Shown in pieces: positions 9,938 to 54,344 of a stretch of 64,000 bases of DNA. Position 1 is the stretch's first letter. Each line of letters starts with the position of its first letter. The position numbers were made by a program, and so were the translations under genes. The DNA is from Candidatus Zixiibacteriota bacterium. Lineage in GTDB: Bacteria; Zixibacteria; MSB-5A5; GN15; FEB-12. A model generated the notes under the pieces. The model worked only from the letters and a program-made list of their open reading frames with translations. It was not told where the DNA came from and made no database searches. The DNA lies in the NCBI GenBank assembly GCA_029860345.1, contig JAOUBJ010000001.1:195089-259088 (forward strand), in the 5' to 3' direction.

Positions 9938-9942
9938 CTGCT

Positions 9943-11952: not shown

Positions 11953-11980
11953 ACCAGAACCCCACGGACGGGAGATACAA

Positions 11981-14900
11981 TTGGCCATTCGAACGAACAA
12001 TTTTCTGCCTGGACTTTCGTGCCTCGGTACACTGATGCTGGTATCGGCAGTAGTCACTGGTGCCGACAATCCCGACCTGATTCGCACCCGCAACCAGGGG
12101 GCGGCCTACTATGAGAATCAGGACTACCCGGACGCGGTGCCGCCGTTTGAGAGCTGCGTGGAGTTCGAGGACGCCGTGGCGGCAGATTGGATCAACCTCG
12201 GGCTGGCCTACTATCGAACCAAACAATGGGAAGAAGCCGTTGAGGCGCTTGAGACGGCGGACAGTGACGAGGATAGCTATCCGCATATCGCCTACGCACT
12301 CGGATTGATCCTCAAAAAGAACGATGCCTTCGAAGCAGCCGCAGAGCGATTTGAAAAAGTCGTCGCCCAGGACCCGGCCGAAGCGCCGGCCTATTACAGT
12401 CTGGGTGTCATGTACCAAAAACTGGGTCGTGATGATGATGCTGAGCGAGCCTTTCAAGCGGTCGTGCGCCATGATCCCCAACATGCCAGCGCCCACTACT
12501 ATTTGTTCAAGTATGCCAAAGCAGCCGGACGACGTGACGAAGCCAAACGAGAGATGCGAATCTTCAGCCGACTGCAACGTGAGATACCGGACAAACAACG
12601 CACCGAGGCCGTCTACGAAGAATCGCAATACCTCACGCCCATTATCCCACCCCACCAGAGTTTCATGCCCGCCGATAGCGACCATCGTGGCAGGATCAGG
12701 TTCGTGGATGTTACCAAAGAGGCGGGGCTGCATGGACCGTCACCGTTTGACACTGACTCATTAAATTACCCACAAGTCTATCAGATCAGTTCACTTGATG
12801 GTAGCACCTGCTTGGTTGACCTTGATGGCGACAATGATCTGGACTTGTACGTCGTTAGGTGCAGTGATGAGCGATCGCCTGGTAATAGGCTGTATCTAAA
12901 TGACGGATCCGGCCACTTCTCGGACGTCAGCTCCGGATCTGGGGCCGCCAACACAAGTTGCGGCCATTACGCGGTTGCAGGTGATATCGATAACAACGGT
13001 ACTGTTGATATTGTACTGTTCAATTACCGTGAGATCAAAGTGCTTAGCAACGATGGAACAGCTCACTTCACCGACCTGTCCGATCGAGCAGGTCTTAGAG
13101 ACTCCACTGTGGTCGGAGATGCCGAGTTGATAGACTACGACCACGACGGAGACCTGGACTTACTTATTGGTGTTTACGGATCACCGGGACAGTCACGCGA
13201 TGGCTGGATGATGTACGTCGACAAGCCGGAGGTTGGATTTGACCGATGGCGTGATCTTATGCCCGAGACAAATCGTATTTATCGCAATAACGGGGACGGC
13301 AGTTTTACAAAAGTCGAAGACAGCGTCTGGGGAAACGAAGTACAGGCATGGACTATCGATGTAGAGTGCGGTGACTTCGATAATGATGATGACACCGATT
13401 GGTTATCGGTCAATGTCAACGCTCCTTGTCAGCTTCACCTCAACCTACGGCAGGGGCAATTCGCTACTTCCGAACCACTCGGCGAGGAGGGCGCGGAAAG
13501 GGGGACGGCCTGCGACTTTGACAACGATGGCGACCTGGATGTTCTTCTTGTCAGGGCAAAAGGCGCACACCTTTACTTGAACAGCGGTGATGCAACTTTC
13601 ACAGAGAAGCGTTTGCCGATCCTTACAAAAGCAGTCACCGACGCCAACATTTCCGCGGTTCGGCCGTTTGACTTCGATAACGACGGGCTTATCGACATCA
13701 CTATGACATACGATAAGGGCGACCCGAGTTTTCATGTCAACCTTGGCCAGAACGAGTTTCAGCTTCTCACTAACGGGCCGGCACTAACCACCGCTTTTTC
13801 AGCTTGGGAACCCGATCATCTTACCGTTGGAGACATCGATAACGATGGTGACCTGGATTTGGTTGGACACAACAACCGTATCCTGCCCTTCATTCTCGAA
13901 AACCGGGGTGGCGAAAGCGCCAACTGGCTCAAAGTGCAGCCGGTGGGAATACGGGTGCCAAAGCAGGGCATCGGCGCCAAACTTGAAATCAAAGCCGGAC
14001 CCTACTACCAACGCCGAGACGTTCACCAATGGCCGGTGCATTTTGGACTCGGCGAGGTGGACAAAATCGACGTGCTGCGCATCACCTGGACCAACGGAAT
14101 CGTGCAAAACATGGTCGACGTGCCCACCAACGAAATCTACAAGGTCGAAGAAATCGTCCGCACCGACGCATCGTGCCCCTTCCTGTTCACGTTCGACGGT
14201 GAAAAGTTTAACTACATTAATGACATCCTCGGCGTGTCGGCGATGGGCGTGCCGCTTGACGAAGGGTTCTATCACCACCCCGACCCGGATGAGTATGTCC
14301 GTATCGATGGCACCATGCTCGCGCCTTTCGACGGTCGTTACCTGCTCAGGCTGGCCGCCGAATTGAAAGAGACAGTTTACCTCGACCAGGTGAAACTCAT
14401 TGCCGTAGATCATCCATCGAACGTCGACGTCTACCCCAACGAACGGTTCAGCGAGCCGCCGTTTATGGAACCCGGCTTGCACACCGTGAAAGAAAGACGT
14501 CACCCTGTTGCAGCCACCGACTACCAAGGCAACAACATCCTGCCGCTTATTGAGAAAACCGACCACAGGTATCCGTCTAACATTCCAATGAGCAGCTATG
14601 ACGGATTGGCCCAACGGCACTGGTTCGAATTCGATCTCGGTGACCTGCGCGGGCATGAGACGATCACGATGTTTCTCACCGGATGGATCTACTGGTCGTC
14701 GGCCTCGGCCAATGTAGCTATCTCGCAGAACCGTCAGGTTGGTTTTGAAGTTGTCAGCCTGAGTGTCCCGGATGCCGACGGTGAATGGATCACGGTAATC
14801 GACGACATCGGCCTGCCAAACGGCAAGAACTCCACTATTCCGGTGCATCTGTCGGGACTCTTTCCCTCTGATGACTTTCGCGTCCGCTTGACCACTAACC

Positions 14901-20933: not shown

Positions 20934-22750
20934 CCTCCAGCTGGTTCGGACACTGTCAGTACTTGGTTGACTTCTACATTTTCGAGCGTCTGAACTCCAC
21001 CTGCCGGCCAGCGGATCACAAGTTTTTCAATGACGTCGTGGCTGCCGAGACCAAAGTGCGCACGCCGACTGCTCTGCGATGCGTAGCCGTTACCGGCCAC
21101 GATTTCGCGAATCATCAGTTGATCGCCGACCGTGAGTTCAAGCCGGGCGCCGACGGCATCTCTGTTGCTCAAGGTGCCGGTGAGATCGACCTCGAACCAA
21201 TTTGCACGGTTGCCGATTTCGTTTCGGTACATCACACCGGCGGCGTCCTGATTGGCCACATACATATCCAGATCGCCGTCGTTATCATAGTCGGCCACGG
21301 CGATTCCCCGACCGTCACGCTTGTCGTCCACACCCGACTCGGCGGCTATCTCGGCAAAGCCATCGAACCCGTCGTTGCGAAACAAGCGACTTGGTTCGTG
21401 TCCTGAACAACTCTTGTTACCCATCATCGGCCAGGTGGCAGCATCCTCCGGGTTGCTGTGAATATCGGTGGCGAACACGGCCAGGTCATACCACCATTCC
21501 TCCTCACCGGCGCTTACGAATCCGTTAACGGCATATATGTCAAGATCACCGTCGTTATCAAAATCCATGAACTTGCAGCCCCAGCCCCAACCACCGTCCC
21601 AGCAATTCGTCTCCACGGCGACATCGACAAAAGACCCATCGCCGAGATTCTCGTGCAGGACGTTGCCTTCCTGGAGAAACTCGTCGGTTGAAATATTGGC
21701 CACATAAATATCAAGCCATCCGTCGTTGTTATAGTCGCCAAACTCGGCGTTCATCCCCTTGCGGCTGTCTATCCCAATGGCTTGGTTTGAAATATTGACA
21801 AAGCCGTCAGCGCCTCGGTAGGTGAACAACCGATCCGGCCCAAAATCGTTGGCCGTGAAAATCTCCATCGTGCCGTTGTTATCAATGTCACCGCAACCGA
21901 CATCAAGCGTCCAACCGCTGTCGGCGATTCCGAGACCACCGGCGACATCGGTGAAAGTTGCATCACCGTTATTACGATACAAGACATTGGCCCCGCCATT
22001 GACAGCCGTTTCAAAGGCATCGTGCATGATACGAGTATGTTCGAGATTCCACAGATCGACATACGGAAAGTAGTTGCCGACATACAAATCAAGATCGCCG
22101 TCGGAATCGTAATCGACAAAGATCACGCCGTTGGCGTTGCCACAGTCGCCGGTGCCGCTCGACTGCGTGACCTCCGTGAACGTTCCGTCGCCATCGGAGT
22201 GAAACAGCCGGTTGCATCCCCATTTGATGACATAGAGGTCGAGGTTCCCATCATTGTCATAGTCACCGAACACCGCCCCCATCGAGGCCCCGTGCTCTTC
22301 GTTGACCCAGGCAACACCGGCCTGGGCGGCCATATCGGTAAACGTAAAGTCACCGTTGTTGTGGTAGAGCAAGTTCGGCTCACCCATACGGGACTGCGTC
22401 ACATATATATCGACATAACCATCACCATCGTAATCGGCGGCGGCAGCGGCGGCGCCCACCGAGGCCATCCAGGGCATGATATTGCCCAGCTTTTCATCCA
22501 GCACCGGTTTGTGATGCCTGTGAGTGATCCCGGCCTGCCGGGTAACATCCGTAAACGCTCTCTGGACCGATTCTTCAGCATTCAAGACGACAGGCAGGGC
22601 GATCAGAAGAAACAACAGTGTCGACCAGCCAAACGCGGCAGAGCATGAGGTGATGAGCCCAAGCCGGCCGCTTTTCTCAAAAACGTCACTGTTCCTTATA
22701 GTTGAGTTGGCTGTCTTTTGCATTGTTCTATGTCTTATGGTTGTTCGCAA
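20930..22750 (-). CDS. FG-GAP/VCBS repeat protein with C-terminal ASPIC/UnbV domain (CRTAC1-family)
   Basis: 606 aa. Multiple DYDGDGYVDIYV / DYDNDGNLDLYV / DYDSDGDLDLYV motifs. C-terminus NWFEVDLTG...AVGARLELT...REIVAGNGYASQSSRRAHFGLG...IRWPAGG. Confidence 0.8.
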   Translation of the reverse strand: MRTTIRHRTMQKTANSTIRNSDVFEKSGRLGLITSCSAAFGWSTLLFLLIALPVVLNAEESVQRAFTDVTRQAGITHRHHKPVLDEKLGNIMPWMASVGAAAAAADYDGDGYVDIYVTQSRMGEPNLLYHNNGDFTFTDMAAQAGVAWVNEEHGASMGAVFGDYDNDGNLDLYVIKWGCNRLFHSDGDGTFTEVTQSSGTGDCGNANGVIFVDYDSDGDLDLYVGNYFPYVDLWNLEHTRIMHDAFETAVNGGANVLYRNNGDATFTDVAGGLGIADSGWTLDVGCGDIDNNGTMEIFTANDFGPDRLFTYRGADGFVNISNQAIGIDSRKGMNAEFGDYNNDGWLDIYVANISTDEFLQEGNVLHENLGDGSFVDVAVETNCWDGGWGWGCKFMDFDNDGDLDIYAVNGFVSAGEEEWWYDLAVFATDIHSNPEDAATWPMMGNKSCSGHEPSRLFRNDGFDGFAEIAAESGVDDKRDGRGIAVADYDNDGDLDMYVANQDAAGVMYRNEIGNRANWFEVDLTGTLSNRDAVGARLELTVGDQLMIREIVAGNGYASQSSRRAHFGLGSHDVIEKLVIRWPAGGVQTLENVEVNQVLTVSEPAGG

Positions 22751-27212: not shown

Positions 27213-28670
27213 TTGAGACCAACTGTAAGATTCCTCAGCGATGAACTGATCGGCCGCATCCTGTCCGAGGCTCGTGAGCTGATCTGCAAACTGGGTGTTG
27301 AGATTCATAACGAGAACGTCCTGGGACTACTCGGTGATCATGGCGCCCGAATCGATTCAAGCAAACATCGCGCCTTTTACACCGACGACATCATCGACCA
27401 ATCATTGAAAGCGGCGCCGTCGTCGTTTTGTCTGTACGATTCCTCAGGAAATCAAGCCGTCGATCTTTCCGGCATGAATGTCAACTTCACCCCCGGATCG
27501 GCGGCCATTAACATTCTGGATTCAGACTCTCTCAAGTCCCGCCGACCGACAACCGCCGACTACGTCAAGTATGCAAGGCTGGTGGGCGGCATGGACCATA
27601 TCGGTTCTCAGTCAACGGCCCTGGTCGCAGACGACGTCCCCGGCAGAATATCCGACAGCTATCGCCTGTACCTCAGTCTGATGCACTGTCATAAACCTGT
27701 CGTGACCGGCGCTTTCACAATCGATGCCTTTGAGATCATGAAAGAGCTTCAGCTCACTGTGCGCGGCTCCGGTCAGGCGCTAAAGGAGAAGCCGCTGGCT
27801 GTTTTCTCATGCTGCCCCACTTCGCCCCTGAAATGGTGCGATGTCACCTCGCAGAACGTGGTCGACTGTGCCAAACACTCGATACCGGTCGAGTACATTT
27901 CGATGCCGTTGTCCGGATTCATGGCCCCGGTAACCCTGGTCGGTTCGCTGGTGCAACACACGGCTGAAACGTTGAGCGGTCTTGCTATCAGTCAATTGAC
28001 AAACCCCGGCACTCCGGTGTTGTACGGTGGTTCTCCGGCTGTTTTCGACCTGCGATACGAGACGACGCCGATGGGCGCTATCGGCACCATGATGATCGAC
28101 TGCGCATACAACGAAATCGGCAAACATCTCGGTCTGCCCACCCAGGCTTACATCGCCCTCAGCGATGCCAAACTGCTCGATGCCCAGGCCGGGCTGGAAA
28201 CATCGATGGGCGCAACGTTGGCGGCGCTGGCCGGGATCAACAACATCTCAGGCCCGGGCATGCTCGATTTTGAAAGTTGTTTCAGTTTGGAAAAACTTGT
28301 CGTTGACAACGAAATCTGTGGCATGGTGCATAGAATGGTCAAAGGTATCGAGCCCAAAGAAGACTTCCCCGCCCTGCCCCGCTTTGAAGAACTGCTGCGC
28401 GACGATCACCTGCTGATCTCGCCGCACACGCTCAAGTATCTCAATGAAGAGATCTATCTCCCCGGCCCGGTAATCGACCGCGCCAACCGTTCCCGCTGGG
28501 CCGAGGAAGGCAGCCTCACCATTCAGCAACGGGCGGCACAGGAAGTAAAACGAATTCTTTCAGAACAGACCGACTCGCCTCTGCCGCAGGATGTCGGCGA
28601 CGAATTGACCCGCCAGATGACCGCCGCTGCCCGCACCCATGAGATGGAGCAGTTACCAGAGTACGCTTGA
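27213..28670 (+). CDS. MttB-superfamily methyltransferase, non-pyrrolysine class (quaternary amine:corrinoid methyltransferase-like)
   Basis: 485 aa. TTG start with AAGGAGAGAG RBS. Overall MttB-like sequence (LSDELIGRILSEARELICKLGVEIHNENVL..., ISGPGMLDFE). There is no in-frame TAG, so it is not the Pyl-containing TMA enzyme. Confidence 0.75.
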   Translation: MRPTVRFLSDELIGRILSEARELICKLGVEIHNENVLGLLGDHGARIDSSKHRAFYTDDIIDQSLKAAPSSFCLYDSSGNQAVDLSGMNVNFTPGSAAINILDSDSLKSRRPTTADYVKYARLVGGMDHIGSQSTALVADDVPGRISDSYRLYLSLMHCHKPVVTGAFTIDAFEIMKELQLTVRGSGQALKEKPLAVFSCCPTSPLKWCDVTSQNVVDCAKHSIPVEYISMPLSGFMAPVTLVGSLVQHTAETLSGLAISQLTNPGTPVLYGGSPAVFDLRYETTPMGAIGTMMIDCAYNEIGKHLGLPTQAYIALSDAKLLDAQAGLETSMGATLAALAGINNISGPGMLDFESCFSLEKLVVDNEICGMVHRMVKGIEPKEDFPALPRFEELLRDDHLLISPHTLKYLNEEIYLPGPVIDRANRSRWAEEGSLTIQQRAAQEVKRILSEQTDSPLPQDVGDELTRQMTAAARTHEMEQLPEYA

Positions 28671-29380
28671 TGAAACGCCAGGTTACAATTGAACTCAAGG
28701 CCACCGTGCCCTCCTCGGCCGACGTTCTTAACGCCCAGTCTGTCCCCAAAACGGCTCACGATGACAGCTCGTTACAAGCGCTGGCCGAGCAAGGGATAGC
28801 TATCTTTCGCAAGCTGGCTCAGCCGATAGGCATGTATGCTCAAGTTGAGTTGCCTGAGTTTGAGAGGATCTACCACGGCGTGGGAGCCAACGACAATGTC
28901 GCCCCCTTGCCGCATATTGCGCAGGCATCCGATAAACTGGCCTTGTATTGCGTCACTCTCGGACAGGAAGTCTGCGCCAGGATATCGCAGCTTTTTGACA
29001 GCCATGAGTATCCTCTGGCCACCATGCTTGACGCCGCCGCCTCGACCGGCGCGGAACTTGCCGCCGAGGTTGTGCAAAAGGAATTTGAACTGCAATTGGA
29101 CAGTGATAAACTAAGCAGTGCACAAACCGGCGTGATGCCGTTCAGCCCCGGCTACTGCGGCTGGCATGTGAGCGGGCAGCGCGCCCTTTTTGATTTTCTA
29201 AAACCGGAGGAGATCGGTGTAAGTCTGAATGAGAGCTGTTTGATGCAACCATTGAAATCAATCAGCGGCGTCATGGTATCAGGCATCAAAGAGATTTTTT
29301 ACTTCGAAGATGTTTTTCCGTTTTGCGCCTCTTGCGCCACCCGTTCCTGTCGGGCGCGGATTGCATCGCTTGAAATGTGA
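28670..29380 (+). CDS. Methionine-synthase (MetH) activation-domain-like protein
   Basis: Track start is TTG 28667, but ATG 28670 (TGATG overlap with mttB-like) is more likely. SPGYCGWHVSGQRALFDFL...IGVSLNESCLMQPLKSISGV resembles the vitamin-B12-dependent methionine synthase activation domain. Cys-rich tail FCASCATRSC. Confidence 0.6.
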   Translation: MKRQVTIELKATVPSSADVLNAQSVPKTAHDDSSLQALAEQGIAIFRKLAQPIGMYAQVELPEFERIYHGVGANDNVAPLPHIAQASDKLALYCVTLGQEVCARISQLFDSHEYPLATMLDAAASTGAELAAEVVQKEFELQLDSDKLSSAQTGVMPFSPGYCGWHVSGQRALFDFLKPEEIGVSLNESCLMQPLKSISGVMVSGIKEIFYFEDVFPFCASCATRSCRARIASLEM

Positions 29381-29410
29381 ACGAACGACCCCAAAGGTAC
29401 AGGGAGAGAT

Positions 29411-30046
29411 ATGAACATACTTGAAGAATTGTCCCAGTCGTTACAAAGAGGTGTGGACAAAGATGTCGTAGCGCACACCCAGAAGGCTATCGACAGCGGC
29501 CTGGCCGTTAAGCAGATTCTTGACGACGGCTTGATCGCCGGTATGTCGATCGTTGGTGAACGATTCAAAAAACACGAACTGTTTCTACCCCATGTGCTAT
29601 TGGCCGCCAAGGCCATGTACGCCGGACTGGACCTCCTGAAGCCGCTGATGCTGAAGGAAGGCATTCCCACGCTGGGAAAAGTCGTGATCGGCACTGTGCA
29701 TGGCGACCTGCATGACATCGGCAAGAACCTCGTCGGTATCATGCTCAAAGGGGCCGGCTTCGAAATAATCGATTTGGGCAAAGATGTGCCCGCGGAGAAC
29801 TTCGTCGAGGCCGCCATCGCCGAGAACGCTCAGGTGATCGGCTTGTCGGCGCTGTTGACCACCACCATGCCGACCATGAAGCAAGTAGTCGACCTGGCCA
29901 CCGAACAAAATGTGCGCGACAAGTTCAAAATCGTTATCGGCGGCGCCCCTTTGTCCGATGAATATGCGCAGGAGATCGGCGCCGATGCCTACTGTTTTGA
30001 TGCCGTCAGCGCCGTCGACCGCGTCAAGCAGTTTGTCGAGAACTGA
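29411..30046 (+). CDS. Cobalamin-binding corrinoid protein (MtbC/MttC/MtgC-like)
   Basis: 211 aa. B12-binding DxHxxG motif (GTVHGDLHDIGKNLV), SALLTTTM and GGAP motifs. RBS AGGGAGAG. Confidence 0.9.
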   Translation: MNILEELSQSLQRGVDKDVVAHTQKAIDSGLAVKQILDDGLIAGMSIVGERFKKHELFLPHVLLAAKAMYAGLDLLKPLMLKEGIPTLGKVVIGTVHGDLHDIGKNLVGIMLKGAGFEIIDLGKDVPAENFVEAAIAENAQVIGLSALLTTTMPTMKQVVDLATEQNVRDKFKIVIGGAPLSDEYAQEIGADAYCFDAVSAVDRVKQFVEN

Positions 30047-30048
30047 AC

Positions 30049-30945
30049 GTGTGCCCACCACTTCTCGAACAGATCAACTCAGGCAGTCTCTTTGTCGGCG
30101 ACGGCGCTATGGGGACGATGCTGTTTGCGCACGGTTTGCAAACGGGTGACTGCCCCGAGAAGTGGAACCTGGATCATCCGAAGACGCTTGAAGAAATCGC
30201 GCGGCTTTATCATCAGGCCGGAGCCGATATCGTCAGCACCAATACGTTCGGGGGATCGGCGCTCAAACTAAAACAGTACGGTCTGGGTGATCGCACCGAA
30301 GAGATCAACGCAGCCGCCGTGTGTGCCGTGCGAAATGCTATCGGTGACGAAGCATACCTCTCGGTTTCATGCGGACCGTGCGGACAATTGATCGAACCGC
30401 TCGGCGATGTCTCTGAGGACGCTGTGTTCGACAGCTTCCTCAGACAATTGCGCGGCGCAACTCAGACGCCGGTCGATTTGATCTGCGTCGAGACCATGAC
30501 TGACCTATCCGAAACTAAACTGGCTGCAAAAGCAGCCCAAACCGCCGCACCGGGAGTACCGGTTGCCGTTACCATGACTTTTGATGAAACGCCCAACGGT
30601 TTTTACACAATGATGGGCGTGAGTATCGTGCAAGCGGCACAGGAACTATCCGACGCCGGGGTGGACATCATAGGCTCCAACTGTGGCAACGGCATCGAGA
30701 ACATGATCAAGATTGCGCACGAGTTCAAAGCCTGCTCATCTCTGCCGATAATGATTCAGTCCAACGCCGGGCTACCGGTGCTCAATGGCGACCGGCTCAC
30801 CTATCCCGAGACACCTGAGTTCATGGCCGATCAGTGCCGCGAACTTGTCGAACTGGGCGTGAGCATCATCGGTGGTTGTTGCGGCACTACGCCCGAGCAT
30901 ATCCGGGCGATACGTGCGATGGTCGACGGACGCGGCGTGGACTAA
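30049..30945 (+). CDS. Homocysteine S-methyltransferase-domain protein (MetH N-terminal-module-like)
   Basis: 298 aa. GTG start 2 nt after the corrinoid gene. FVGDGAMGTMLFAHGL at the N-terminus and Zn-ligand motifs SNCGNG and GGCCGTTPEHI. Confidence 0.8.
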   Translation: MCPPLLEQINSGSLFVGDGAMGTMLFAHGLQTGDCPEKWNLDHPKTLEEIARLYHQAGADIVSTNTFGGSALKLKQYGLGDRTEEINAAAVCAVRNAIGDEAYLSVSCGPCGQLIEPLGDVSEDAVFDSFLRQLRGATQTPVDLICVETMTDLSETKLAAKAAQTAAPGVPVAVTMTFDETPNGFYTMMGVSIVQAAQELSDAGVDIIGSNCGNGIENMIKIAHEFKACSSLPIMIQSNAGLPVLNGDRLTYPETPEFMADQCRELVELGVSIIGGCCGTTPEHIRAIRAMVDGRGVD

Positions 30946-31058
30946 GAAACACACTCCGCCCCGCCGTCGGCGGGCCATCCCTCTCAAGAGGGGACCCTAT
31001 AAATGAGTCTTGGCCCTACATGCGCCACCAACCTCATGCTGAGCGGAGTCGAAGCATG
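30946..31058. repeat. Hairpin-module cluster, including the left 49-bp direct repeat (30946-30994) and a GAGCGGAGTCGA-loop hairpin (31035-31058)
   Basis: 30946-30994 matches 34865-34913 at 46/49. It contains hairpins cccgcc-gtc-ggcggg and ccctc-tcaa-gaggg. 31035-31058 is catgct/agcatg around the loop gagcggagtcga. Confidence 0.8.
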
Positions 31059-31411
31059 ACACAGCAGAACCGTGAGTAACCGCGAAATGGCTTTGTTTTG
31101 CGGAAAAAAGCTTTTCCCGGGTCCCCCCTCTGAGCAAATGGGTTCGTTTGGTGGGTTTTTGTTTCCCGGTAATAGAATCGATGGTGAATGCGCTGGCCTG
31201 AATAGACACTTATGCATCATTGTGGTCCTTTATAGAATGATGAGAACCCGTGATTTGGATTGGGTCGGTAGTGTTTATGTGCGAGGTGTGGAGTCAGCCC
31301 TGCAGGTGTCGGCACGGGTGCGAAATGTGATTGCCCACGGGAAGACCATGGAGTACCTTTCGTTGATTTGGAATTGCAACTGTGGTATGTGGGTCTTTGG
31401 AGGAGAAGTAG

Positions 31412-32866
31412 ATGGAGGAAATCTATCCCAAACAGCCGTTTGACGATGTCCATCGGTTCATTGGCGAACTCAAAGCTGATGAACACACGGTTGATGGTCT
31501 TCAGATCGTCGCCCAATACTCATTGGATAAGCCGGGTCCAATAAGGATAGTCATCGAGGGCGATTCAGAAGTTCGCAAGACGTTAAGAACCGTACTCGAC
31601 AAGAACCCACACTCGCTGTCAGTAAAGAGCACCGACAAAGACGAAGGTGGAAAGCGCATTCTCATGGATGATGTATGGCTAAAAGACTGGCACAGTTCGG
31701 AGTTTCCCGACTTTCTGGGCAGGTTTGGGACCAGATCACCTGACGATCGACTGTTCCGCCCGATTGTGGAACTTAGGGCAAGTAGCCTACTTGCCACCCC
31801 TGAAACATTCATGGGTGATTCGGAACGACCTCACATTGAGTACTTCTTCCCAGCGCAACACAATTTCTGGGCGTTGTACGTTTTGGAGGGTCAGCGGGAA
31901 TCACAGTCCGGGTTGGATCCAGAACGTGGTTGCGAGGTCTTGATTGGCAGAGACCTGCCATTTAGTGCAAAGCTATTGCCGTCTAGACTGGAGAGGTTCG
32001 ACCAGGCAAGCGGATACATGTGGACCTCCCGGAATCACTCGCTGAAGCTCAAGCTCGATGGCGAAGCTGGGGAGGTCTCTCTTAAGGAGTGTATGCCATA
32101 CGCAGACGCTGTTTCCCTCGCGGTCTCGGTGGCAACCCGCACTAGAACGGCATGGCTTCGTGCCCACATAGGATTGCGTAAGGAAGTCTCTCGGTTTATG
32201 GTTGCACGGCTAGAACTCGAGGAGCGGGGGGTCAGCTATGCCCCGTGGCTCATCGATGTTGGATCATCCTTGAGGATGTACCTTGACACTGCGGTCAATA
32301 GAATCCGGGAGTTCAGCAATCAAGGTATAGATCTCCGTGTTGCTCTAGAGTCCTGGCATCAGGCAAGACTTCAGACCAATACTACGAATCAGTTCCTATT
32401 GCTCTTTGTGTGTTTGGAGAAGCTAAAGGATCTTTATGCCAGGAAGGCTGGACTGCTACAAATCCAATCAGATGCAGAGTACATAAAGCTCGCATCCGCT
32501 ATAGACGGTGTGCTCGGAGATTGTATTGCGGAACCAAAGATAAGGCGGCAGGTCAGCTCTAAACTCCGAGAACTAAATCGACCAACTTTTCGCTCAGTGC
32601 TGCAGCGAATGCTTGATCACTATAAAGTTCCATGGCGCGATTTGTACCCACCAGATGCAAAACTGGGATTTATTCGGACACGTGATACGTTGTTGCACTC
32701 AACCGACCCTGTACCACCTGACAGACTCTACAACGATATGGAGCGGGTACAAGCTATTGTCGATAGGCTATTGCTCAGATTGCTCGGATGGGATGATCTG
32801 TCCGCTACGCCTTCTGAATACACGCTGGAGCGTCTATCGAAGGTTCACGACAATGAGGCTTCGTAG
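31412..32866 (+). CDS. Hypothetical protein with a C-terminal Rx4H (HEPN-like) motif
   Basis: 484 aa with a strong RBS (GGAGGAGAAGTAG ATG). GC is ~10 points lower than neighbouring genes on sampled lines. The C-terminal helical half contains FIRTRDTLLHS (R-x4-H). No other family recognised. Confidence 0.6.
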   Translation: MEEIYPKQPFDDVHRFIGELKADEHTVDGLQIVAQYSLDKPGPIRIVIEGDSEVRKTLRTVLDKNPHSLSVKSTDKDEGGKRILMDDVWLKDWHSSEFPDFLGRFGTRSPDDRLFRPIVELRASSLLATPETFMGDSERPHIEYFFPAQHNFWALYVLEGQRESQSGLDPERGCEVLIGRDLPFSAKLLPSRLERFDQASGYMWTSRNHSLKLKLDGEAGEVSLKECMPYADAVSLAVSVATRTRTAWLRAHIGLRKEVSRFMVARLELEERGVSYAPWLIDVGSSLRMYLDTAVNRIREFSNQGIDLRVALESWHQARLQTNTTNQFLLLFVCLEKLKDLYARKAGLLQIQSDAEYIKLASAIDGVLGDCIAEPKIRRQVSSKLRELNRPTFRSVLQRMLDHYKVPWRDLYPPDAKLGFIRTRDTLLHSTDPVPPDRLYNDMERVQAIVDRLLLRLLGWDDLSATPSEYTLERLSKVHDNEAS

Positions 32867-32874
32867 TTGAATAT

Positions 32875-32955
32875 GTCGAGACCCGCCCTTTGACTGCGCT
32901 CGGGGTGACGGAGTGTCGAAACCTCGCTTCGCGACCCCTTCGGGTCAGGGGTTTC
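32875..32955. repeat. Hairpin-module cluster
   Basis: gtcgaaacc...ggtttcgac is a 9-bp stem enclosing tcgc-ttc-gcga and gaccc-cttc-gggtc, followed by ctacaag. A degenerate reverse copy of the GAGCGGAGTCGA-type module sits at ~32881-32908. Confidence 0.7.
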
Positions 32956-33086
32956 GACCTACAAGACTGTTATCGGCGTCCTGAACAAACAGAGTTCGCA
33001 ATGTTTTGAGATTGATTCTCTGTTTTGTGACACTTATCCTTAAGAGTCTTTAAGGAATCAAAAAACGTTGTCATGGTATCTACGCG

Positions 33087-34787
33087 ATGAGTGAATTGGC
33101 TTATTTACGAGACTTGGTTATCATTCTCAGCTTTGGCGTGATTATCGTTACTCTATTTCATAGGTTGAGACTCCCCTCTATTGCAGGCTTCATTTTTTCC
33201 GGGTTACTTGTCGGACCCCATGGTTTTGGATTCATAAGTGATGCTCATCAAATTGAAGTTCTGGCCGAGATCGGAGTTGCCCTGCTCCTATTCGGCATTG
33301 GATTGGAACTATCCCTGGACAAACTCAGAAGGCTTTGGAGGTTGATTGTGGTCGGCGGCGCCCTGCAGGTTGGGTTAACCGTTTGCGCTGCCTATGCGAT
33401 TGCAAGGACGTTTGAGATTCCTGGTCAATCTGCTCTTTTCATCGGATTCGTGCTAGCCTTATCGAGTACCGCAATAGTCATGCGCGGCTTGCAACAAAGA
33501 GGCGAACTCGACGCTCCTCATGGTCGCCTGATCCTGGGGATACTGGTGTCTCAGGATTTCAGCGTAGTTCCCATGATGCTCGCTATCCCGATACTGGTCG
33601 GAGACGATATTCCGGCCTCTGTCTATTTGAACACAATGTTGCGCGCTGTCGGCATTATCATTGCCGTTCTGGCAGCCGCCCTCCTTATTGTTCCGCGGAT
33701 ACTACGCTTCGTTGCCAGGACCAGGCAGAGACAACTGTTCATACTCACCGTCTTTCTGATATGCATCGGCACGGCTTGGCTGATAACCTGGTCGGGGGCT
33801 TCGCTTGCTATCGGCGCGTTTCTGGCCGGACTGGTTGTTGCCGGGAGTGAGTACCGACATCAGGCTCTGGCCGACTTGATCGCGTTCCGTGAGGTGTTTG
33901 CAAGCGTGTTTTTTGTATCGATTGGGATGTTACTGGCTCCGTCGCTAATAGTCGAGAACATTGTTTTGGTTCTTGCTCTCCTAATGGCGATTCTGATCGG
34001 GAAAGCGGTGATTACGTTTGTCGCTGCCAGGTTACTCCGGATGCCACTTAGAGTTTGCTTGATGACAGCCGTTGCCCTGGCCCAGGTGGGCGAGTTTTCG
34101 TTCGTCTTACTGTTCTCGGTTCAGGGCAGCGACCTGATTGATAAGAATCTGGAAAGTTCCTTAGTATCGGCAGCCATTCTCTCCATGTTCGTTACTCCCT
34201 TTGCCATGTCATTTGGCCCTCGCCTTGCGGCCGGGCTCGGCAAGCTTCCTCGCCTGAGACGACTGCTCGATGTGGACGTAGCCGAAAACGCGACTGCTTC
34301 AGTTGGTGGAATGCGAGATCACGTGATTGTTGGCGGCTACGGTTTTGCAGGAAGGGAGTTGACCAAAGCTCTAAGAGACCATGAAGTACCTTTAGTTGTG
34401 GTGGATATAAACATCGACAATGTGAAGAAAGCGTCACAAGAGGGCGCTATCGCTTTTTTCGGCGATATTACCAGTCAGAGTGTCCTCGCCAAGCTGGGGG
34501 CTGAGTGTGCGGGGGAGTTGGTACTTCTGGTTAATGACCCCAAAGCGGCTGAGCAGGCTGTACGAGTGGCCAGACGACTTGCTCCCAACCTGCATATAGT
34601 GGTGCGAACGCATTACTTGCTCGACATTGAGCCGATTATTTCCGCCGGCGCTAACCAGGTGGTGCCCTCCGAACGTGAAGCTGCTGTTGAGGTCACATCA
34701 TTGGTGCTCAATCGGCATCAGATAGACAATCGGCGGATTGCCGACCTTAGCAACCGAATCCGTAGTCAATCTGAAGATGATGTTTGA
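33087..34787 (+). CDS. CPA2-family cation:proton antiporter with C-terminal RCK/TrkA-N domain (KefB/C-like)
   Basis: 566 aa. ~12 TM helices followed by a Rossmann motif (VIVGGYGFAGRELTKAL). Lower GC than the surrounding regions. Confidence 0.8.
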   Translation: MSELAYLRDLVIILSFGVIIVTLFHRLRLPSIAGFIFSGLLVGPHGFGFISDAHQIEVLAEIGVALLLFGIGLELSLDKLRRLWRLIVVGGALQVGLTVCAAYAIARTFEIPGQSALFIGFVLALSSTAIVMRGLQQRGELDAPHGRLILGILVSQDFSVVPMMLAIPILVGDDIPASVYLNTMLRAVGIIIAVLAAALLIVPRILRFVARTRQRQLFILTVFLICIGTAWLITWSGASLAIGAFLAGLVVAGSEYRHQALADLIAFREVFASVFFVSIGMLLAPSLIVENIVLVLALLMAILIGKAVITFVAARLLRMPLRVCLMTAVALAQVGEFSFVLLFSVQGSDLIDKNLESSLVSAAILSMFVTPFAMSFGPRLAAGLGKLPRLRRLLDVDVAENATASVGGMRDHVIVGGYGFAGRELTKALRDHEVPLVVVDINIDNVKKASQEGAIAFFGDITSQSVLAKLGAECAGELVLLVNDPKAAEQAVRVARRLAPNLHIVVRTHYLLDIEPIISAGANQVVPSEREAAVEVTSLVLNRHQIDNRRIADLSNRIRSQSEDDV

Positions 34788-34864
34788 TTCGGGCCGGACT
34801 GCACAATCTCCCTAAATCTCACCGCACCTGATTCGTGCAATGGTTGACGCGCGGCGCGGACAAA

Positions 34865-34913
34865 GAAACACACCCCGCCCCGCCGTCGGCGGCCCACCCC
34901 TCTCAAGAGGGGA
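34865..34913. repeat. Right copy of the 49-bp direct repeat
   Basis: gaaacacaccccgccccgccgtcggcggcccacccctctcaagagggga differs from 30946-30994 at 3 of 49 positions. Confidence 0.8.
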
Positions 34914-35077
34914 AGAAAAGAAATCTGCGGTACCGGCATTCCATTTCTACTGCAGGACCCTTCTCGATGCGAATACGAACACTCTTGCCGCAAAAGGTGG
35001 GGATTTCGTAGTAGTTGACAATCCTGGACTATGACTTGAGGATGATCCTGTCGGCCTTTCATTAATAGAGGGGAAGT

Positions 35078-35208
35078 CTTGTAGGGCGGGTCCGTCTTCG
35101 CCTGCGCGCCGCGGCGTGAACCCGCCATCCGTGAAAGGAGAACAAGGCTCCTAATCTCCAGAAGATGACGCTTGTACAAAGATGGATTCCCGCCTTCGCC
35201 GGAATGAC
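35078..35208. repeat. Hairpin-module cluster (GTAGGG-type module with an internal insertion; ATTCCC...GGAAT-type module)
   Basis: 35080-35126 is gtagggcgggtccgtcttcg[cctgcgcgccgcggcgtg]aacccgcc, compared with the uninterrupted copy at 38672-38699. 35184-35208 is ggattcccgccttcgccggaatgac. Confidence 0.7.
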
Positions 35209-35221
35209 AGATAACGCGCCT

Positions 35222-36511
35222 TTAACCGACAATCCCTGCAAAACCCGCCGGGTCGGTGTCACCTTCGGTGTTGATGACGAGAACGCGGGATGTGGAATCA
35301 ATGTGCAAAAACTCACGGGCAGGTGTAAACGCAGGATCGTTAACGAGTGTCGTGAGAGCTGCCAAACCGGCCGCGCCTGACTCGCCGGAGATTATCCGTG
35401 GGTCATCGTCTGTCGGATAAAAACAGCTCCGCATTGCCTCACGACCGGAGTCGTCACTGATGGACACGAACAGATCATAGCCCTGTTTCACGAAGGGCCA
35501 GGCAATCGGCGATGGTGTGCCGCAATTCAACCCGGCCATAATCGATGATGGGTCGCCTGCAATCGTTATTGGTTCACCATCGGTGGTTTGTATCGACTGC
35601 ATGCAACAGTCGGCAGTCAGTGGTTCGACCGAAACAAGTTTCGGATGCGGTTCGGGATAGATGCGGTTGTAATACCACGCAGCAGCAGCCGCCAGCGCCC
35701 CGACACCGGCTTGCACGATCACCACGTCGACCTGGTTGGCGGCATCTTTATGGATCTCTTCGAACATGGTCAGGTATCCCGCTTGTATCCACCGAGGTAT
35801 CTGCTCATAACCGGGCCAGCCGGTGTCGGAGAGTATCTGCCAGTCACGCGCAAGCGCGTCTTCTCTGCAACGAGCCACAGCAGCATCATAAGATCCATCC
35901 ACAACGATAACTTCAGCACCCTCGTTGCGGATGTTTTCGATTCGCGCCGGGACCGTTTCTTTTGGCATGTAGATCACTGCCTTTTGGGCAAGTTGGCGCG
36001 CCACCCAGGCGACACCGCGGCCATGGTTGCCGTCCGTTGCCGTAGTGAACGTGAAACTCCCGGACGGCAACGGTGAATCTCTGTAGAACCGCTCGGACGG
36101 CGGGCAACTTTGAGAGTTTTCGTTGAGCAACTGTTTGATGACCTGATAGATTGCATAGGTGGAGCCGAGCGCTTTGAAAGCGTTCAACCCGAATCGATGC
36201 GATTCGTCCTTGACCAACAACTCCCCAATGCCGAGTCGCTCAGCCAACACCGGCAGCGACACCAACGGCGTCGGCGCGTACTCTTTGAGTGATCGATGCA
36301 CCGATGACGCTTCGCAGCTTTTGAACTCGGAATTGATCGCATCATCCCAGATGGGAGCAACCTGTCGGTGCCTGTTGATTTCAAAGCATGGTTCCATGGC
36401 GAACAAGCTACAACTATCGCCACTTGCGGTCAATGATTTCGAGTCGACAAAAAAAGCGGGACCTCCGGTTGAAACCGGAAGCCCCGCCCCGCGGACGGCG
36501 GAGAGGGTCAT
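35222..36511 (-). CDS. dpaL: Diaminopropionate ammonia-lyase (PLP-dependent, fold type II)
   Basis: 429 aa. YAPTPL...LLVKDESHRFGLNAFKALGSTYAI matches the DAP ammonia-lyase PLP-lysine region as I recall it from E. coli YgeX. The start ATG 36511 overlaps the upstream stop (ATGA). An alternative internal start is ATG 36397. Confidence 0.75.
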   Translation of the reverse strand: MTLSAVRGAGLPVSTGGPAFFVDSKSLTASGDSCSLFAMEPCFEINRHRQVAPIWDDAINSEFKSCEASSVHRSLKEYAPTPLVSLPVLAERLGIGELLVKDESHRFGLNAFKALGSTYAIYQVIKQLLNENSQSCPPSERFYRDSPLPSGSFTFTTATDGNHGRGVAWVARQLAQKAVIYMPKETVPARIENIRNEGAEVIVVDGSYDAAVARCREDALARDWQILSDTGWPGYEQIPRWIQAGYLTMFEEIHKDAANQVDVVIVQAGVGALAAAAAWYYNRIYPEPHPKLVSVEPLTADCCMQSIQTTDGEPITIAGDPSSIMAGLNCGTPSPIAWPFVKQGYDLFVSISDDSGREAMRSCFYPTDDDPRIISGESGAAGLAALTTLVNDPAFTPAREFLHIDSTSRVLVINTEGDTDPAGFAGIVG

Positions 36512-38532: not shown

Positions 38533-38620
38533 GGTTTTCCTCTCCGTCGAATCGTTTTCTATGTCAATTTCTGTCGCGCCTTTCGTATCAGGGGTGCCGC
38601 CAGCGGTCATCTCTTGCACA

Positions 38621-38736
38621 GGCAGACCTTTTTTTTGCGCTTCGCCATATCCTAACCTCGATCTTAGCAAAGTAGGGTGGGTCCGTCTTCGGACCCGCCT
38701 TTGTTGGCAGGCTTGAAGACAGACCTGCCCTACAAG
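38621..38736. repeat. Hairpin-module cluster in a divergent promoter region
   Basis: ggcagaccttttttttgcgcttcgcc (38621-38646). gtagggtgggtccgtcttcggacccgcc (38672-38699; 9-bp stem, tctt loop). ggcaggcttgaagacagacctgccctacaag (38706-38736). Confidence 0.7.
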
Positions 38737-44551: not shown

Positions 44552-45969
44552 AGATGTTGCTTGGCGGTCAGTGGGTCGACCGCGACGAGAAGATCGATGT
44601 CTGTGACCCCTTCGACAACTCGGTAATCGATACGGTTCCCAGTGGCAAAGCAGACGACGCTGAACTGGCCTTGGCTTCGGCAACCGCCGGATTTGAAATC
44701 ACCAAACGGATGTCCGTCTATGACCGGGCGCAGATTCTCTACAAAGCAGCGGGTCTGATCTCCGATCGGCTGGAAGAGTTCGCCCGGATAATCGCCCGCG
44801 AAGGTTCCAAGACGATCAACGAAGCGCGCAAGGAAGCGGGCCGTTGCGTCAACACGATTACATGCTCGGCCGAAGAAGCCAAACGCATCCTCGGCGAGAC
44901 TATACCCTGGGACTCGTTCCCCGGCGGTGAGAAGCGTCGCGGCTACTACTACCGTTTCCCCATTGGTGTCGTGCTGTGTATCACGCCGTTCAACGATCCG
45001 CTCAATCTGGTGGCCCACAAACTGGGTCCGGCCATCGCCGCGGGCAACTCGGTGATTCTCAAACCGGCCACGGTTACGCCGCTGTCGGCTATCATGTTAG
45101 TCGAAGTGCTTCTTGAGGCCGGACTGCCACCGAATGCAGTTCAACTCATCACCGGCTACGGTTCGAAAATCGGCGATCAACTGGTCAGCGACGAACGAGT
45201 GCGCATGGTGTCGTTCACCGGCGGTGTCGAAGCGGGCAAACAGATAGCATCCAAAGCAGGCATCAAAAAGATCGGCATGGAACTCGGTTCCGATTCGCCG
45301 GTGATCGTCTGGAAAGATGCCGACATGCAACTGGCCGTCGAGTCATGTGTCTCCGGCGCTTTCTGGGCGGCAGGACAAAACTGTATCGGCGTCCAGCGGT
45401 TGCTCGTGCACAAGGATATCTATGACGAGTTCAAAACAGAATTCGTCGAACTCACCAAGACATACAAGATCGGTGACAAACTCGACGAGTCCACGCAGAT
45501 GGGTCCGATGATAACCGAAGCCGAAGCCAAACGAGTAGAAAAATGGGTCAAAGACGCAGTCGCCGGTGGCGCCAACCTGCTCACCGGCGGTGGCCGCACC
45601 GGCGCGTTGGTCGAGCCGACCGTGCTGGACAACGTGCCCGAAGATGCCAAGGTCCATTGCGAAGAAGTATTCGGTCCGACCGTGAACCTATACCCGGTGG
45701 ATGATCTGGACAAAGCAATCGCTGAGGCCAATGCTCTGCCTTACGGTTTGCTCGCGGCCATTTTCACACGTGATGTTGAAACCGCTTTCAAGGCCGCGTA
45801 TGAACTTGACTGTGGTGGTGTGATGATTAACGACTCGACCGATTACCGATTGGACTCGATGCCGTTCGGCGGCGTGAAGTATTCCGGGTTGGGCCGCGAA
45901 GGGCTCAAGTTCTCATTGCAGGAGATGACCGAACCCAAAGTCATCTGCTTCAACCTGCCCGGGATATAG
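44548..45969 (+). CDS. NAD(P)-dependent aldehyde dehydrogenase
   Basis: 473 aa with an ATGA overlap with the upstream gene. ALDH motifs FTGGVEAGK, MELGSDSPVIV (Glu), AAGQNCIGVQRLLV (catalytic Cys), EEVFGP. Confidence 0.85.
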   Translation: MKMLLGGQWVDRDEKIDVCDPFDNSVIDTVPSGKADDAELALASATAGFEITKRMSVYDRAQILYKAAGLISDRLEEFARIIAREGSKTINEARKEAGRCVNTITCSAEEAKRILGETIPWDSFPGGEKRRGYYYRFPIGVVLCITPFNDPLNLVAHKLGPAIAAGNSVILKPATVTPLSAIMLVEVLLEAGLPPNAVQLITGYGSKIGDQLVSDERVRMVSFTGGVEAGKQIASKAGIKKIGMELGSDSPVIVWKDADMQLAVESCVSGAFWAAGQNCIGVQRLLVHKDIYDEFKTEFVELTKTYKIGDKLDESTQMGPMITEAEAKRVEKWVKDAVAGGANLLTGGGRTGALVEPTVLDNVPEDAKVHCEEVFGPTVNLYPVDDLDKAIAEANALPYGLLAAIFTRDVETAFKAAYELDCGGVMINDSTDYRLDSMPFGGVKYSGLGREGLKFSLQEMTEPKVICFNLPGI

Positions 45970-46534
45970 TGGCAAGCCCCTTTTTTGCGCTTCGCGCAGC
46001 ATGCTTTTTGGCGCCGTCAAGCGACCCCGCGTGACGGTTTGGGAGTTGGAAGACGGGTGTCGGGCGAGATCGCCCAACACCACCCTCGAAATGACGGCCG
46101 ATGACGGGTGGCCGTCTCAAGCCTTGTTTGGGACGGACTTCTGTGTCTGCGAAGAGTCACCCCCAAAGCGACTTTGAGGGTGCCACCCAGTCGCCAATGG
46201 CGCCTCTGGCGCCAACCTCACCTTGAGCGGAGTTGGAGGGTGCTTGCATCCAATCACGCTTCATGCCTCGACTCCGCTCGGCATGACATGGATGAACTTG
46301 TGCCCCCTTTGTCATTCCCGCGAAGGCGGGAATCCATCTTCAATGTTACCACGTGCCGTCAAGCGACCCCGAGTGACGGCTTTGGCAGTTCTTCAGTATG
46401 GTGGGGCCGTCTTCGGACCCGCCGCGATTGTCAGGACCACAAGGATCGTGACCTACAAGGTGACGGCGCGCGTAGCGCGAAAAACAGGCTTGCCTGTGTC
46501 GGGCGAGGTCGCCCAACACCACCAACGAAATGGT
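45969..46534. repeat. 566-bp intergenic region built almost entirely of hairpin modules, several present twice
   Basis: M1 ggcaagcc..ttttttgcgcttcgcgc at 45971-45997 and reverse at ~46467-46494. M2 ccgtcaagcgaccccg.gtgacgg at 46014-46037 and 46356-46379. M3 gtgtcgggcga.gtcgcccaacaccacc..cgaaatg at 46057-46093 and 46496-46532. M4 at 46219-46242 and reverse at 46262-46285. M5 at 46311-46335. M6-like at 46401-46423. Confidence 0.8.
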
Positions 46535-51941: not shown

Positions 51942-52790
51942 ATGCTTAAAAAGACACTTCTGATATTTGTGGCCCTGAGTCTATCCCTGGCTACTGTACC
52001 GGACTTGACGGCCGGAGGCATTAGTGCCGATGCCGGTCTCACACCGGCGCACGACAAGTGGATGTTTCGCACGCAAGCGCGCTTGAACAGATTGAAGAAC
52101 GCGCCCGACCAGATGACCCGCGAGATGGACATGTACATGTTCCCGCTGGTGATCGCCTACGGCGTCCGCTCGGATCTGACCGTGATGATCCGTCAGCCGC
52201 TTATGCGTATGAACATGACTATGGCCGGCAACACCACTCACACCACCGGGTTTGGCGACCTGATGCTTATGACCAAGTACCGCGCCGTCCGGCGCAACAC
52301 CCCGACCTATACCTTCGGCGTCGCACCACTGCTTGGCATCAAGCTCCCCACCGGCGAAGATGACATCTCCGCGAACGCAACTTCGCTCAAAACCGGGTTG
52401 TTCGTCTCGGGCCGCATTCAACCGTGGGCGTCCGAGTTGAATTTTACTTATACACTCAACGGTCTGACCGGCGACGACGACCGCGAGGAGTACCAGGTTC
52501 TCGAATTCGTGGGCGCTTTTGCTCGTCAGTTCAGTCTCACCGAGGACGGACGCAGAGCGATCGCGCCGGTGGTCGAGCTGTCGTATGAACATGCTACCGC
52601 CACAGAGATCGATAATGTTGAACAGCCTAACAGCGGTGGATCGTTGCTCCGGGTCGCACCGGGCGCGAAGTTAACAATCTCAGGGGTCGTCTTTGAGTCA
52701 CTGTTGTGGATTCCGGTCTGGGAAGATTTGAACGGCAACCAACTCGAGTACGACATCGGCGGCCTGATCGGCCTGCGCGTGATGCTGTAA
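51942..52790 (+). CDS. Outer-membrane beta-barrel protein (possibly the MetA-pathway/transporter-like family)
   Basis: Start at ATG 51942 with a GGGAGA RBS. Signal peptide, alternating beta-strand pattern, TGFGDLMLMTKY motif, aromatic-rich C-terminus. The specific family is a guess. Confidence 0.5.
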   Translation: MLKKTLLIFVALSLSLATVPDLTAGGISADAGLTPAHDKWMFRTQARLNRLKNAPDQMTREMDMYMFPLVIAYGVRSDLTVMIRQPLMRMNMTMAGNTTHTTGFGDLMLMTKYRAVRRNTPTYTFGVAPLLGIKLPTGEDDISANATSLKTGLFVSGRIQPWASELNFTYTLNGLTGDDDREEYQVLEFVGAFARQFSLTEDGRRAIAPVVELSYEHATATEIDNVEQPNSGGSLLRVAPGAKLTISGVVFESLLWIPVWEDLNGNQLEYDIGGLIGLRVML

Positions 52791-54257: not shown

Positions 54258-54344
54258 TGCCGGAACTTGCCAGTTGAGAACAACCCGATTTATCGGTGGT
54301 TTGCCTGGTTGAGTTTCTACCCGGAGACTGAGCTGGTGAATTAG
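54211..54344 (+). repeat. Direct duplication of the DUF3179 gene's last 47 nt, including the stop
   Basis: 54211-54257 ggtttgcctggttgagtttcttcccggagactgagctggtcgattag versus 54298-54344 ggtttgcctggttgagtttctacccggagactgagctggtgaattag. There are 3 mismatches and a 40-nt spacer. Confidence 0.85.

Follow-up and report, generated by a model that had tools for sequence, protein, structure and literature searches.

In the 64,000-nucleotide stretch of contig JAOUBJ010000001.1 from a Candidatus Zixiibacteriota bacterium analyzed here (the window), a 3.9-kb segment between a methyltransferase operon and a diaminopropionate ammonia-lyase gene (dpaL) is bracketed by two near-identical direct repeats of 49 nucleotides (nt). 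A preliminary description of this DNA considered the segment a possible low-GC islet left by site-specific insertion, or the repeat one more member of a dispersed family of hairpin modules. Our analysis points, with slightly better than even confidence, to a local duplication of the 3' end of the last operon gene together with an adjoining hairpin module. One of the two enclosed genes, encoding a CPA2 cation:proton antiporter, is ancestral at this site, and only the other, encoding a predicted HEPN protein of 484 amino acids (aa), was gained in this lineage; the duplication would have needed no dedicated recombinase.

The methyltransferase operon (27213-30945) comprises genes for an MttB-family methyltransferase, an activation domain, a corrinoid protein, and an S-methyltransferase-family protein (SMT), the last of which closes the operon. 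This four-gene cassette is kept in about 40 related loci. Between the repeats lie two open reading frames (ORFs) longer than 140 aa, encoding the HEPN-like protein and CPA2, in agreement with the two genes initially reported there. The assignment of CPA2 is borne out by Pfam, which recognizes a Na_H_Exchanger membrane domain and a C-terminal TrkA_N (RCK) domain; the NCBIfam KefC, KefB, and YbaL models also match this protein, under their equivalog cutoffs. The features of the locus, in window coordinates, are as follows.

30049-30945, + strand: SMT gene (Pfam S-methyl_trans, 2.1e-66; Homocysteine S-methyltransferase family)
30909-30994, + strand: left repeat copy, consisting of the native SMT end with its TAA (30909-30945) and the hairpin module (30946-30994)
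31029-31059, + strand: hairpin module of the abundant CTGAGCGGAGTCGAAG family (families D7/I13/I18), which also lies at the contig ends of L002-L005
31412-32866, + strand: 484-aa gene, with a predicted beta-rich N-terminal domain (~1-265) and a helical C-terminal domain carrying R424-x4-H429
32915-32966, + strand: palindromic module GTCGAAACC...GGTTTCGACCTACAAGA, resembling repetitive extragenic palindromic (REP) elements; 50/52 nt match the SMT-CPA2 spacer of contig L060
33001-33086, + strand: conserved promoter-like region upstream of CPA2, which aligns with contigs L060 and L062 and partly with L059
33087-34787, + strand: CPA2 cation:proton antiporter gene, KefB/KefC-like (Na_H_Exchanger, 4.8e-61; C-terminal TrkA_N, 1.4e-19)
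34830-34913, + strand: right repeat copy, consisting of a pseudo SMT 3' end (34830-34864) and the module (34865-34913)
34914-34923, + strand: A/G-rich tail AGAAAAGAAA after the right module; a similar tail is present at locus L061 and none at the left copy
35081-35126, + strand: GTAG-headed REP-like element, a rare long-loop variant, unique in the window
35222-36511, - strand: dpaL (NCBIfam PRK08206, 3.3e-128), convergent with CPA2

The repeated SMT 3' end and its hairpin module

As first described, the 49-mers at 30946-30994 and 34865-34913 have the same orientation and differ by 3 mismatches; they are the only matches to this sequence within the window, where 100 shuffles gave an expectation of 0. 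Local alignment extends the repeat to 86 and 84 nt (30909-30994 and 34830-34913), with 8 mismatches (A/T, G/A, C/T, T/C, T/A, T/C, G/C, and T/C) and one 2-nt indel, and a score of 121 compared with 19.5 +/- 2.1 (maximum, 26) for 200 shuffles. The left copy thereby takes in 37 nt more (30909-30945), which are the final codons and the TAA stop of the SMT gene, indicating that the right copy, located 42 nt 3' of the CPA2 stop codon, contains a decayed pseudo 3' end of SMT. The repeat thus consists of 35 to 37 nt of SMT 3' end and a 49-nt module with two hairpins, and extends beyond the stop codon. The SMT C terminus (..RAMVDGRGVD*) is homologous to the C termini of relatives, and the left end is therefore native. 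In the right copy, a 2-nt deletion breaks the frame and the stop codon TAA has become AAA. Its pseudo-coding part carries 5 substitutions (3/5 synonymous) and one indel in 37 nt and is 84% identical to the left copy; the module part diverges less, at 3/49 positions. This better conservation of the module than of the adjoining pseudo-coding part hints at constraint on the hairpins.

Both repeat junctions read identically in independent assemblies (NCBI/JGI, two ENA samples, and several Logan runs), indicating that the repeat is not an assembly artifact, and the right copy is unchanged in every assembly that covers it. Where short-read assemblies break, they do so at the abundant CTGAGCGGAGTCGAAG and REP modules rather than the 49-mer. 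An ORF of 64 aa (34840-35034, + strand) that is annotated in some assemblies starts at the ATG of the pseudo SMT end, inside the right repeat, and is most likely spurious.

A third copy of the module is present at an unrelated locus. An exact scan of JGI metagenome contigs for the two-hairpin core gave one further match (L061), which lies on a 324-kb contig, 5' of a gene for uridine kinase, and L061 is also the one locus beyond the window pair that was found in a fuzzy search of 855 kb of retrieved sequence. Accessions identical to this uridine kinase and to the window CPA2 protein fall in the same three Zixibacteria metagenome-assembled genome (MAG) accession runs, suggesting that the L061 copy belongs to the same genome as the window, whose source is an uncultured candidate-division Zixibacteria population represented by MAG GCA_029860125.1 among others. 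Each of the three copies is predicted to form a pair of adjoining hairpins, with stems CCCGCC/GGCGGG and CCCTC/GAGGG in the left one, and each hairpin searched singly returned the same two window sites and no others. The stems at L061 are perfect (8 bp and 6 bp; fold z-score, -3.1), and each window copy lacks one or two stem pairs. The three copies are about equidistant, with pairwise differences at 3 to 4 of 49 positions. L061 has no 37-nt SMT end but shares with the right copy the 3' boundary GGGGA and an A/G-rich tail, although the likeness of the tails is one of low-complexity sequence and so is weak evidence.

The module has no GTAG/CTAC head, terminal inverted repeats, target-site duplication, or Rfam match, and its core was not found in viral contigs by the exact-core scan. 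Further, tRNA, tmRNA, and Rfam scans of the whole window found nothing. The module is also unlike all the abundant palindromic families in the window, and on sequence comparison we regard it as a distinct, low-copy dispersed element. The alternative raised at the outset, a dispersed family of hairpin modules, is thus supported by the third copy elsewhere, but the module is neither abundant nor related to the abundant families. As a canonical intrinsic terminator the module was rejected: there is no U-tract on the + strand, and a weak consensus match on the - strand, with unremarkable folding z-scores, leaves only a weak possibility. If it is functional, the module may plausibly act as an RNA 3'-end hairpin, stabilizing transcripts or weakly terminating them, rather than as an att site.

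The module is set among many other palindromes. Composite arrays of distinct palindromic module families occupy the intergenic regions 35077-35209, 38617-38733, 45969-46500, 52782-52907, and 59688-60068. Their families, which are also represented at 31029-31059 and 32915-32966, include GTAG-headed GTAGGGYGGGTCCGTCTTCGGACCCGCC, ATTCCCGCGAAGGCGGGAAT, CTGAGCGGAGTCGAAGG, and GTGGCAAGCCAC...CGCGCTTCGCGCG, and recur in the related Zixibacteria contigs L008, L009, L060, L062, and L069. These arrays look like a system of the REP or bacterial interspersed mosaic element (BIME) type. In E. coli, REPs stabilize upstream mRNA. Like REP, BIME, and REPIN elements, the 49-mer is short, extragenic, and hairpin forming, and it follows closely on a stop codon; it is known from at least three loci that probably belong to one genome, and its surroundings are rich in other palindromes, several with the canonical GTAG head. 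It differs from REP and BIME elements in its lack of a GTAG/CTAC head, its very low copy number, and its dissimilarity to the abundant families of the window. REPINs are mobilized by RAYT transposases; no RAYT turned up here, in an analysis that included no search aimed at RAYTs and did not cover the whole genome.

One of these palindromes bears on which repeat copy adjoins the original downstream sequence of SMT. The long-loop REP variant lies 167 nt 3' of the right repeat. Elsewhere, among all loci compared, it occurs only directly after the SMT stop codon, in contigs L062 and L063, and its 3' flank CCGCCATCC is common to the REP that adjoins SMT in L060. These positions suggest that the right repeat and the sequence after it represent the original SMT 3' flank.

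CPA2 synteny and the composition of the segment

To place the segment in its lineage, we compared it with the closest relatives found, represented by four contigs (L059, L060, L062, and L063) with SMT homologues of 79 to 81% identity from the protein database. L063 stops 31 nt past the SMT stop codon and shows only the start of the spacer. In each of the other three, CPA2 follows SMT, at a distance of 318 nt in L059, 489 nt in L060, and 136 nt in L062, and in L059 it is followed by dpaL on the opposite strand, giving the gene order of the window. Amino acid identities between the window and these three relatives are 82 to 85% for CPA2, 79 to 80% for SMT, and 79 to 83% for the corrinoid protein, so that CPA2 is conserved as well as or better than its neighbors; dpaL is 68% identical. 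Approximately 85 nt upstream of CPA2 are also conserved among the window, L060, and L062, and partly in L059, and the remainder of the SMT-CPA2 spacers is mostly unalignable. None of the three relatives has the 49-mer on either side or the 484-aa gene.

From this comparison, we conclude that CPA2 with its upstream region is an ancestral resident neighbor of the methyltransferase operon, and that the 484-aa gene is the only newly gained gene relative to L059, L060, and L062. The empty site anticipated in the preliminary description, with the methyltransferase operon directly next to dpaL and a single repeat copy, is not what the relatives show, as L059, L060, and L062 have CPA2 in this position. 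They also count in part against the islet by the standard set in that description, relatives that carry both genes without the repeats: CPA2 is found without repeats in all three, but the 484-aa gene is not there. Within the species, neither an empty site nor any variant was found in the 9 SMT-, 7 CPA2-, and 6 dpaL-carrying contigs, which have an identical arrangement. A scan of species-representative genomes with SMT returned only relatives of 71% identity or less, in which the SMT-dpaL interval holds aldehyde dehydrogenase, homoserine dehydrogenase, and cupin genes; these were rejected as empty sites because they are too distant and have different genes between SMT and dpaL.

The composition of the segment is deviant, as initially claimed. 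The windowed GC and tetranucleotide analysis proposed at that stage gives a GC content of 50 to 52% at 31 to 34 kb compared with 55.2% for the whole window, figures that differ from the earlier estimate of ~38 to 55% (mostly ~48%) against flanks of ~57 to 60%. The 2-kb windows at 31.0 to 34.0 kb are the strongest tetranucleotide outliers in the window (z, -4.1 to -5.1), and the 484-aa gene and CPA2 have the lowest GC content at third codon positions (0.534 and 0.542, respectively) among 29 long ORFs (mean, 0.634; standard deviation, 0.043). The outlier signal comes mainly from the 484-aa gene, whose tetranucleotide correlation with the rest of the window (r = 0.25, z = -7.5) is lower than that of any of 196 background windows. 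CPA2 deviates less strongly (r = 0.56, z = -3.1), and OPT, another membrane protein gene, is not an outlier. In L059, CPA2 has a GC content of 46.8% compared with 54 to 56%, and a tetranucleotide r of 0.33 compared with 0.67 to 0.81, for the rest of the contig. Since CPA2 is equally low in GC and atypical in the relatives, its composition is inherited and is not a mark of recent insertion.

On these sequence comparisons, the view that the 3.9 kb between the repeats arrived as one foreign islet is not supported. The locus is a cautionary case: direct repeats, low GC, and a gene 3' end together mimic the footprint of a genomic island, and synteny in relatives reveals that most of the supposed island was resident here already and inherited its odd composition, and that a single defense-type gene is new.

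In this Zixibacteria clade (window 27213-34787, L059, L060, and L062), the gene for the CPA2 K+/cation:proton antiporter has kept its place directly 3' of the MttB-type (quaternary-amine) methyltransferase operon, and its composition is atypical in all of these genomes. The two may be neighbors through a functional connection with osmolyte handling, or the arrangement may go back to an early acquisition in the clade's ancestor.

A family of predicted ApeA-like HEPN proteins

The 484-aa protein has no Pfam, NCBIfam, or PADLOC match, and a word-indexed protein search found one homologue, missing almost all members of the family. An exhaustive HMMER search of 1.84 billion cluster representatives recovered 247 homologue clusters (50% identity), 32 of them at E <= 1e-30 and most of them full length (465 to 490 aa). 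The gene, at first described as an orphan with an Rx4H motif, is therefore not an orphan. The motif itself stands: R424 and H429 are invariant in a 60-member alignment, as are S239, E336, L388, and R445, and the family consensus of the last helix, TRNxLFHS, is the HEPN R-x4-H signature. Eighteen of the 60 homologues match Pfam HEPN_Apea (best, 8.7e-6) and 11 match the PADLOC Cas13-ApeA model (best, 8.3e-7); none of the 60 matched a Pfam model in the N-terminal domain.

The AlphaFold2 model of the protein (pLDDT, 88.5; pTM, 0.89) has a beta-rich N-terminal domain (~1 to 265) and an all-helical C-terminal domain that carries R424 and H429. No PDB structure was matched significantly in a Foldseek comparison, in which the C-terminal model scored best against the HEPN protein Csm6 (E value, 0.8). 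Taken together, the alignment and the structural model predict that the 484-aa gene encodes a divergent stand-alone ApeA-like HEPN RNase of the abortive-infection type.

The protein is like ApeA (HEPN_Apea, PF18739) in being encoded by a single gene of ~480 codons, in its helical C-terminal domain with an invariant R-x4-H (family consensus, RNxLFH), and in that a fraction of its homologues score on the HEPN_Apea and PADLOC ApeA models. The gene sits in a variable spacer. An architecture of ApeA-NTD1 plus HEPN has been described in which ApeA-NTD1 comprises ~300 aa, mostly of beta strands (Anantharaman et al. 2013, PMC3710099). The N-terminal domain of the 484-aa family, of ~265 to 270 aa, is predicted to be similar, mostly of beta strands, with conserved aromatic residues. 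The ApeA proteins of E. coli are tRNA anticodon nucleases activated by deoxydinucleotides and are predominantly alpha-helical, with N-terminal and Mid domains (bioRxiv 10.64898/2026.01.26.701840). Unlike these, the 484-aa protein has a predicted N-terminal domain that is beta-rich and not mostly helical, and it departs from ApeA further in that it matches no Pfam, NCBIfam, or PADLOC model itself and has no significant match to a solved structure.

The homologue closest to the window protein, at 32% identity, was sampled together with L059; its gene occupies another locus, and its contig has hairpin modules of the same families. The distribution of the family is patchy, as expected of a defense gene, and phage and plasmid records contained no match to the protein. 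Inverted or direct repeats flanking just the 484-aa gene were limited to 12- to 16-nt matches at noise level. These results place an unannotated protein in a sizeable, uncharacterized ApeA-like HEPN branch (at least 247 clusters at 50% identity, ~475 aa) that could be a candidate for defense-system screens.

Origin of the repeat

We lean toward a local duplication of the SMT 3' end and module, next to a CPA2 gene that was already in place. We infer the order and mechanism of events as follows. Ordinary, recombinase-independent recombination in a spacer crowded with REP-like palindromes would have duplicated the SMT end together with the module, and the 484-aa defense gene would have been gained separately from this duplication. 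By one route, a tandem duplication of the SMT 3' end, module, spacer, and CPA2 would have been followed by loss of the second CPA2, with the first spacer replaced by the HEPN gene. By another, a unit of module, HEPN gene, CPA2, and SMT-end fragment would have been reinserted by a crossover in the module or, in a variant, through homology-facilitated illegitimate recombination. If the right side is the original SMT 3' flank, the interval 30995-34829 would lie inside a formerly contiguous SMT flank. Since the right pseudo-coding part is still 84% identical to its source and the spacers are unalignable among relatives, the duplication would be much younger than the residence of CPA2. These events resemble segmental duplication with reductive deletion, or homology-facilitated illegitimate recombination, in that short native direct repeats surround resident genes and mobile-element genes are absent. 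The locus documents a repeat-rich, recombination-prone spacer in an uncultured Zixibacterium; overall, this is ordinary genome plasticity, of modest interest.

Several observations weigh against a local duplication. No intermediate or pre-rearrangement state was found, all assemblies of the species being alike, and the nearest relatives are only about 80% identical. Unlike in known cases of segmental duplication, no remnant of a second CPA2 accompanies the repeat: the candidate remnant to its right (35153-35175) was rejected as not significant (score, 22, compared with 17.3 +/- 2.9 for shuffles), leaving the duplication-deletion route without direct support. The position of the long-loop REP is only suggestive, as REP elements are mobile. 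Finally, the equidistance of the three module copies is also compatible with the dispersal of a mobile module.

This last point leads to the strongest of the alternatives, which we nonetheless consider unlikely, namely, that the 49-nt module is a small mobile or copy-prone element, spread by REP- or MITE-like (miniature inverted-repeat transposable element) mobilization or by template switching at hairpins. The right copy would have been made from the left one, with an imprecise start 37 nt upstream that carried the SMT end along, and the bracketing of the two genes would be incidental. Besides the rough equidistance of the copies (3 to 4 differences in 49 nt), this is consistent with the copy at the unrelated locus L061, which has perfect 8-bp and 6-bp stems, the 3' boundary of the right copy, and no SMT flank. 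The absence of the module from both positions in relatives, its lower divergence (3/49) relative to the pseudo-coding part (5 substitutions and an indel in 37 nt), and a genome full of other mobile-looking palindromic modules fit as well. Against it, only three copies are known, the exact-core scan having found one JGI metagenome stretch and none in viral contigs, and a GTAG head, terminal inverted repeats, and a target-site duplication are all lacking. A mobile module also leaves unexplained why the long-loop REP, which follows SMT in relatives, adjoins the right copy.

Site-specific insertion, the explanation first proposed, would mean that the HEPN gene and CPA2 arrived on a circular element of 3.9 kb that integrated into the SMT 3' end, with the repeats as attL and attR and an integrase that acted in trans or has since been lost. 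The geometry is that of classical islands at gene 3' ends: direct repeats of ~85 nt include the end of the target gene, the gene is intact with its frame restored on the left, an orphaned copy of its end lies on the right, and the DNA between is the strongest compositional outlier in the window. The SMT-type downstream context of the right copy agrees with this geometry, and the 3/5 synonymous substitutions of the pseudo-coding part would be consistent with the joining of two alleles that had both been evolving as coding sequence. However, no integrase, excisionase, transposase, tRNA, or tmRNA was found in the segment or within ~10 kb, as judged from an ORF scan, the Pfam labels of the genes within +/-10 kb, and the tRNA and tmRNA scans, in line with the initial report that no integrase is present. 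CPA2, one of the two cargo genes, occupies the same site in three relatives without repeats, with a conserved upstream region and orthologue-level identity, such that the recipient would first have needed to lose it; the direct repeats and deviant DNA are real, and to that extent the insertion reading is supported, but one inserted unit of 3.9 kb is not. In addition, the species contigs listed above include no empty site or variant, the 49-mer core is not in viral contigs, and the 484-aa protein is unmatched in phage and plasmid records. Because an integrase is lacking, CPA2 is syntenic, and no empty site was found, we consider a classical island the least likely of these three main models.

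Less credible again is that the module serves as the crossover site of an excisable HEPN-CPA2 cassette without an integrase, or is a copy-prone element that carries its upstream flank in a REP/RAYT-like or retrocopy-like manner. Were the cassette reading true, the methyltransferase operon would gain and lose the HEPN gene and CPA2 reversibly at its 3' end.

It is very improbable that the right and third copies arose as retrocopies from the SMT-operon mRNA and its 3' end, with a fixed 3' end, an A/G-rich tail, and a variable 5' truncation. The right copy and L061 do share a 3' boundary and purine-rich tails, differ in their 5' starts, and contrast with a tailless left copy. But the two tails align with each other, which makes shared descent likelier than independent origin; there are no target-site duplications; no reverse transcriptase is known here, the ORF scan having covered 25 to 39 kb; the mismatches are not adenine specific as in diversity-generating retroelements; and there are two derived copies only. 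A template repeat-variable repeat pair of such a retroelement was likewise rejected, as there is no reverse transcriptase among the neighboring genes and the mismatches are not confined to adenines.

The window contains other repeats. A second pair of 49-nt direct repeats (54210-54258 and 54297-54345) is 94% identical, with starts 87 nt apart. The largest repeat families are FG-GAP/ASPIC-type (DxDxDG-like) units inside long genes at 8429-13551 (+ strand) and 21251-22436 (- strand), which are protein coding and not mobile DNA.

Among the neighboring genes, dpaL is 68% identical to its L059 orthologue, barely above the 62 to 65% identity to the far more distant L008 and L009. Its neighbors do separate the two groups of relatives, with identities of 79 to 90% for L059, L060, and L062 versus 66 to 76% for L008 and L009; for the activation-domain gene, the values are 62% and 50%, respectively. 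dpaL may be fast evolving or may have been replaced.

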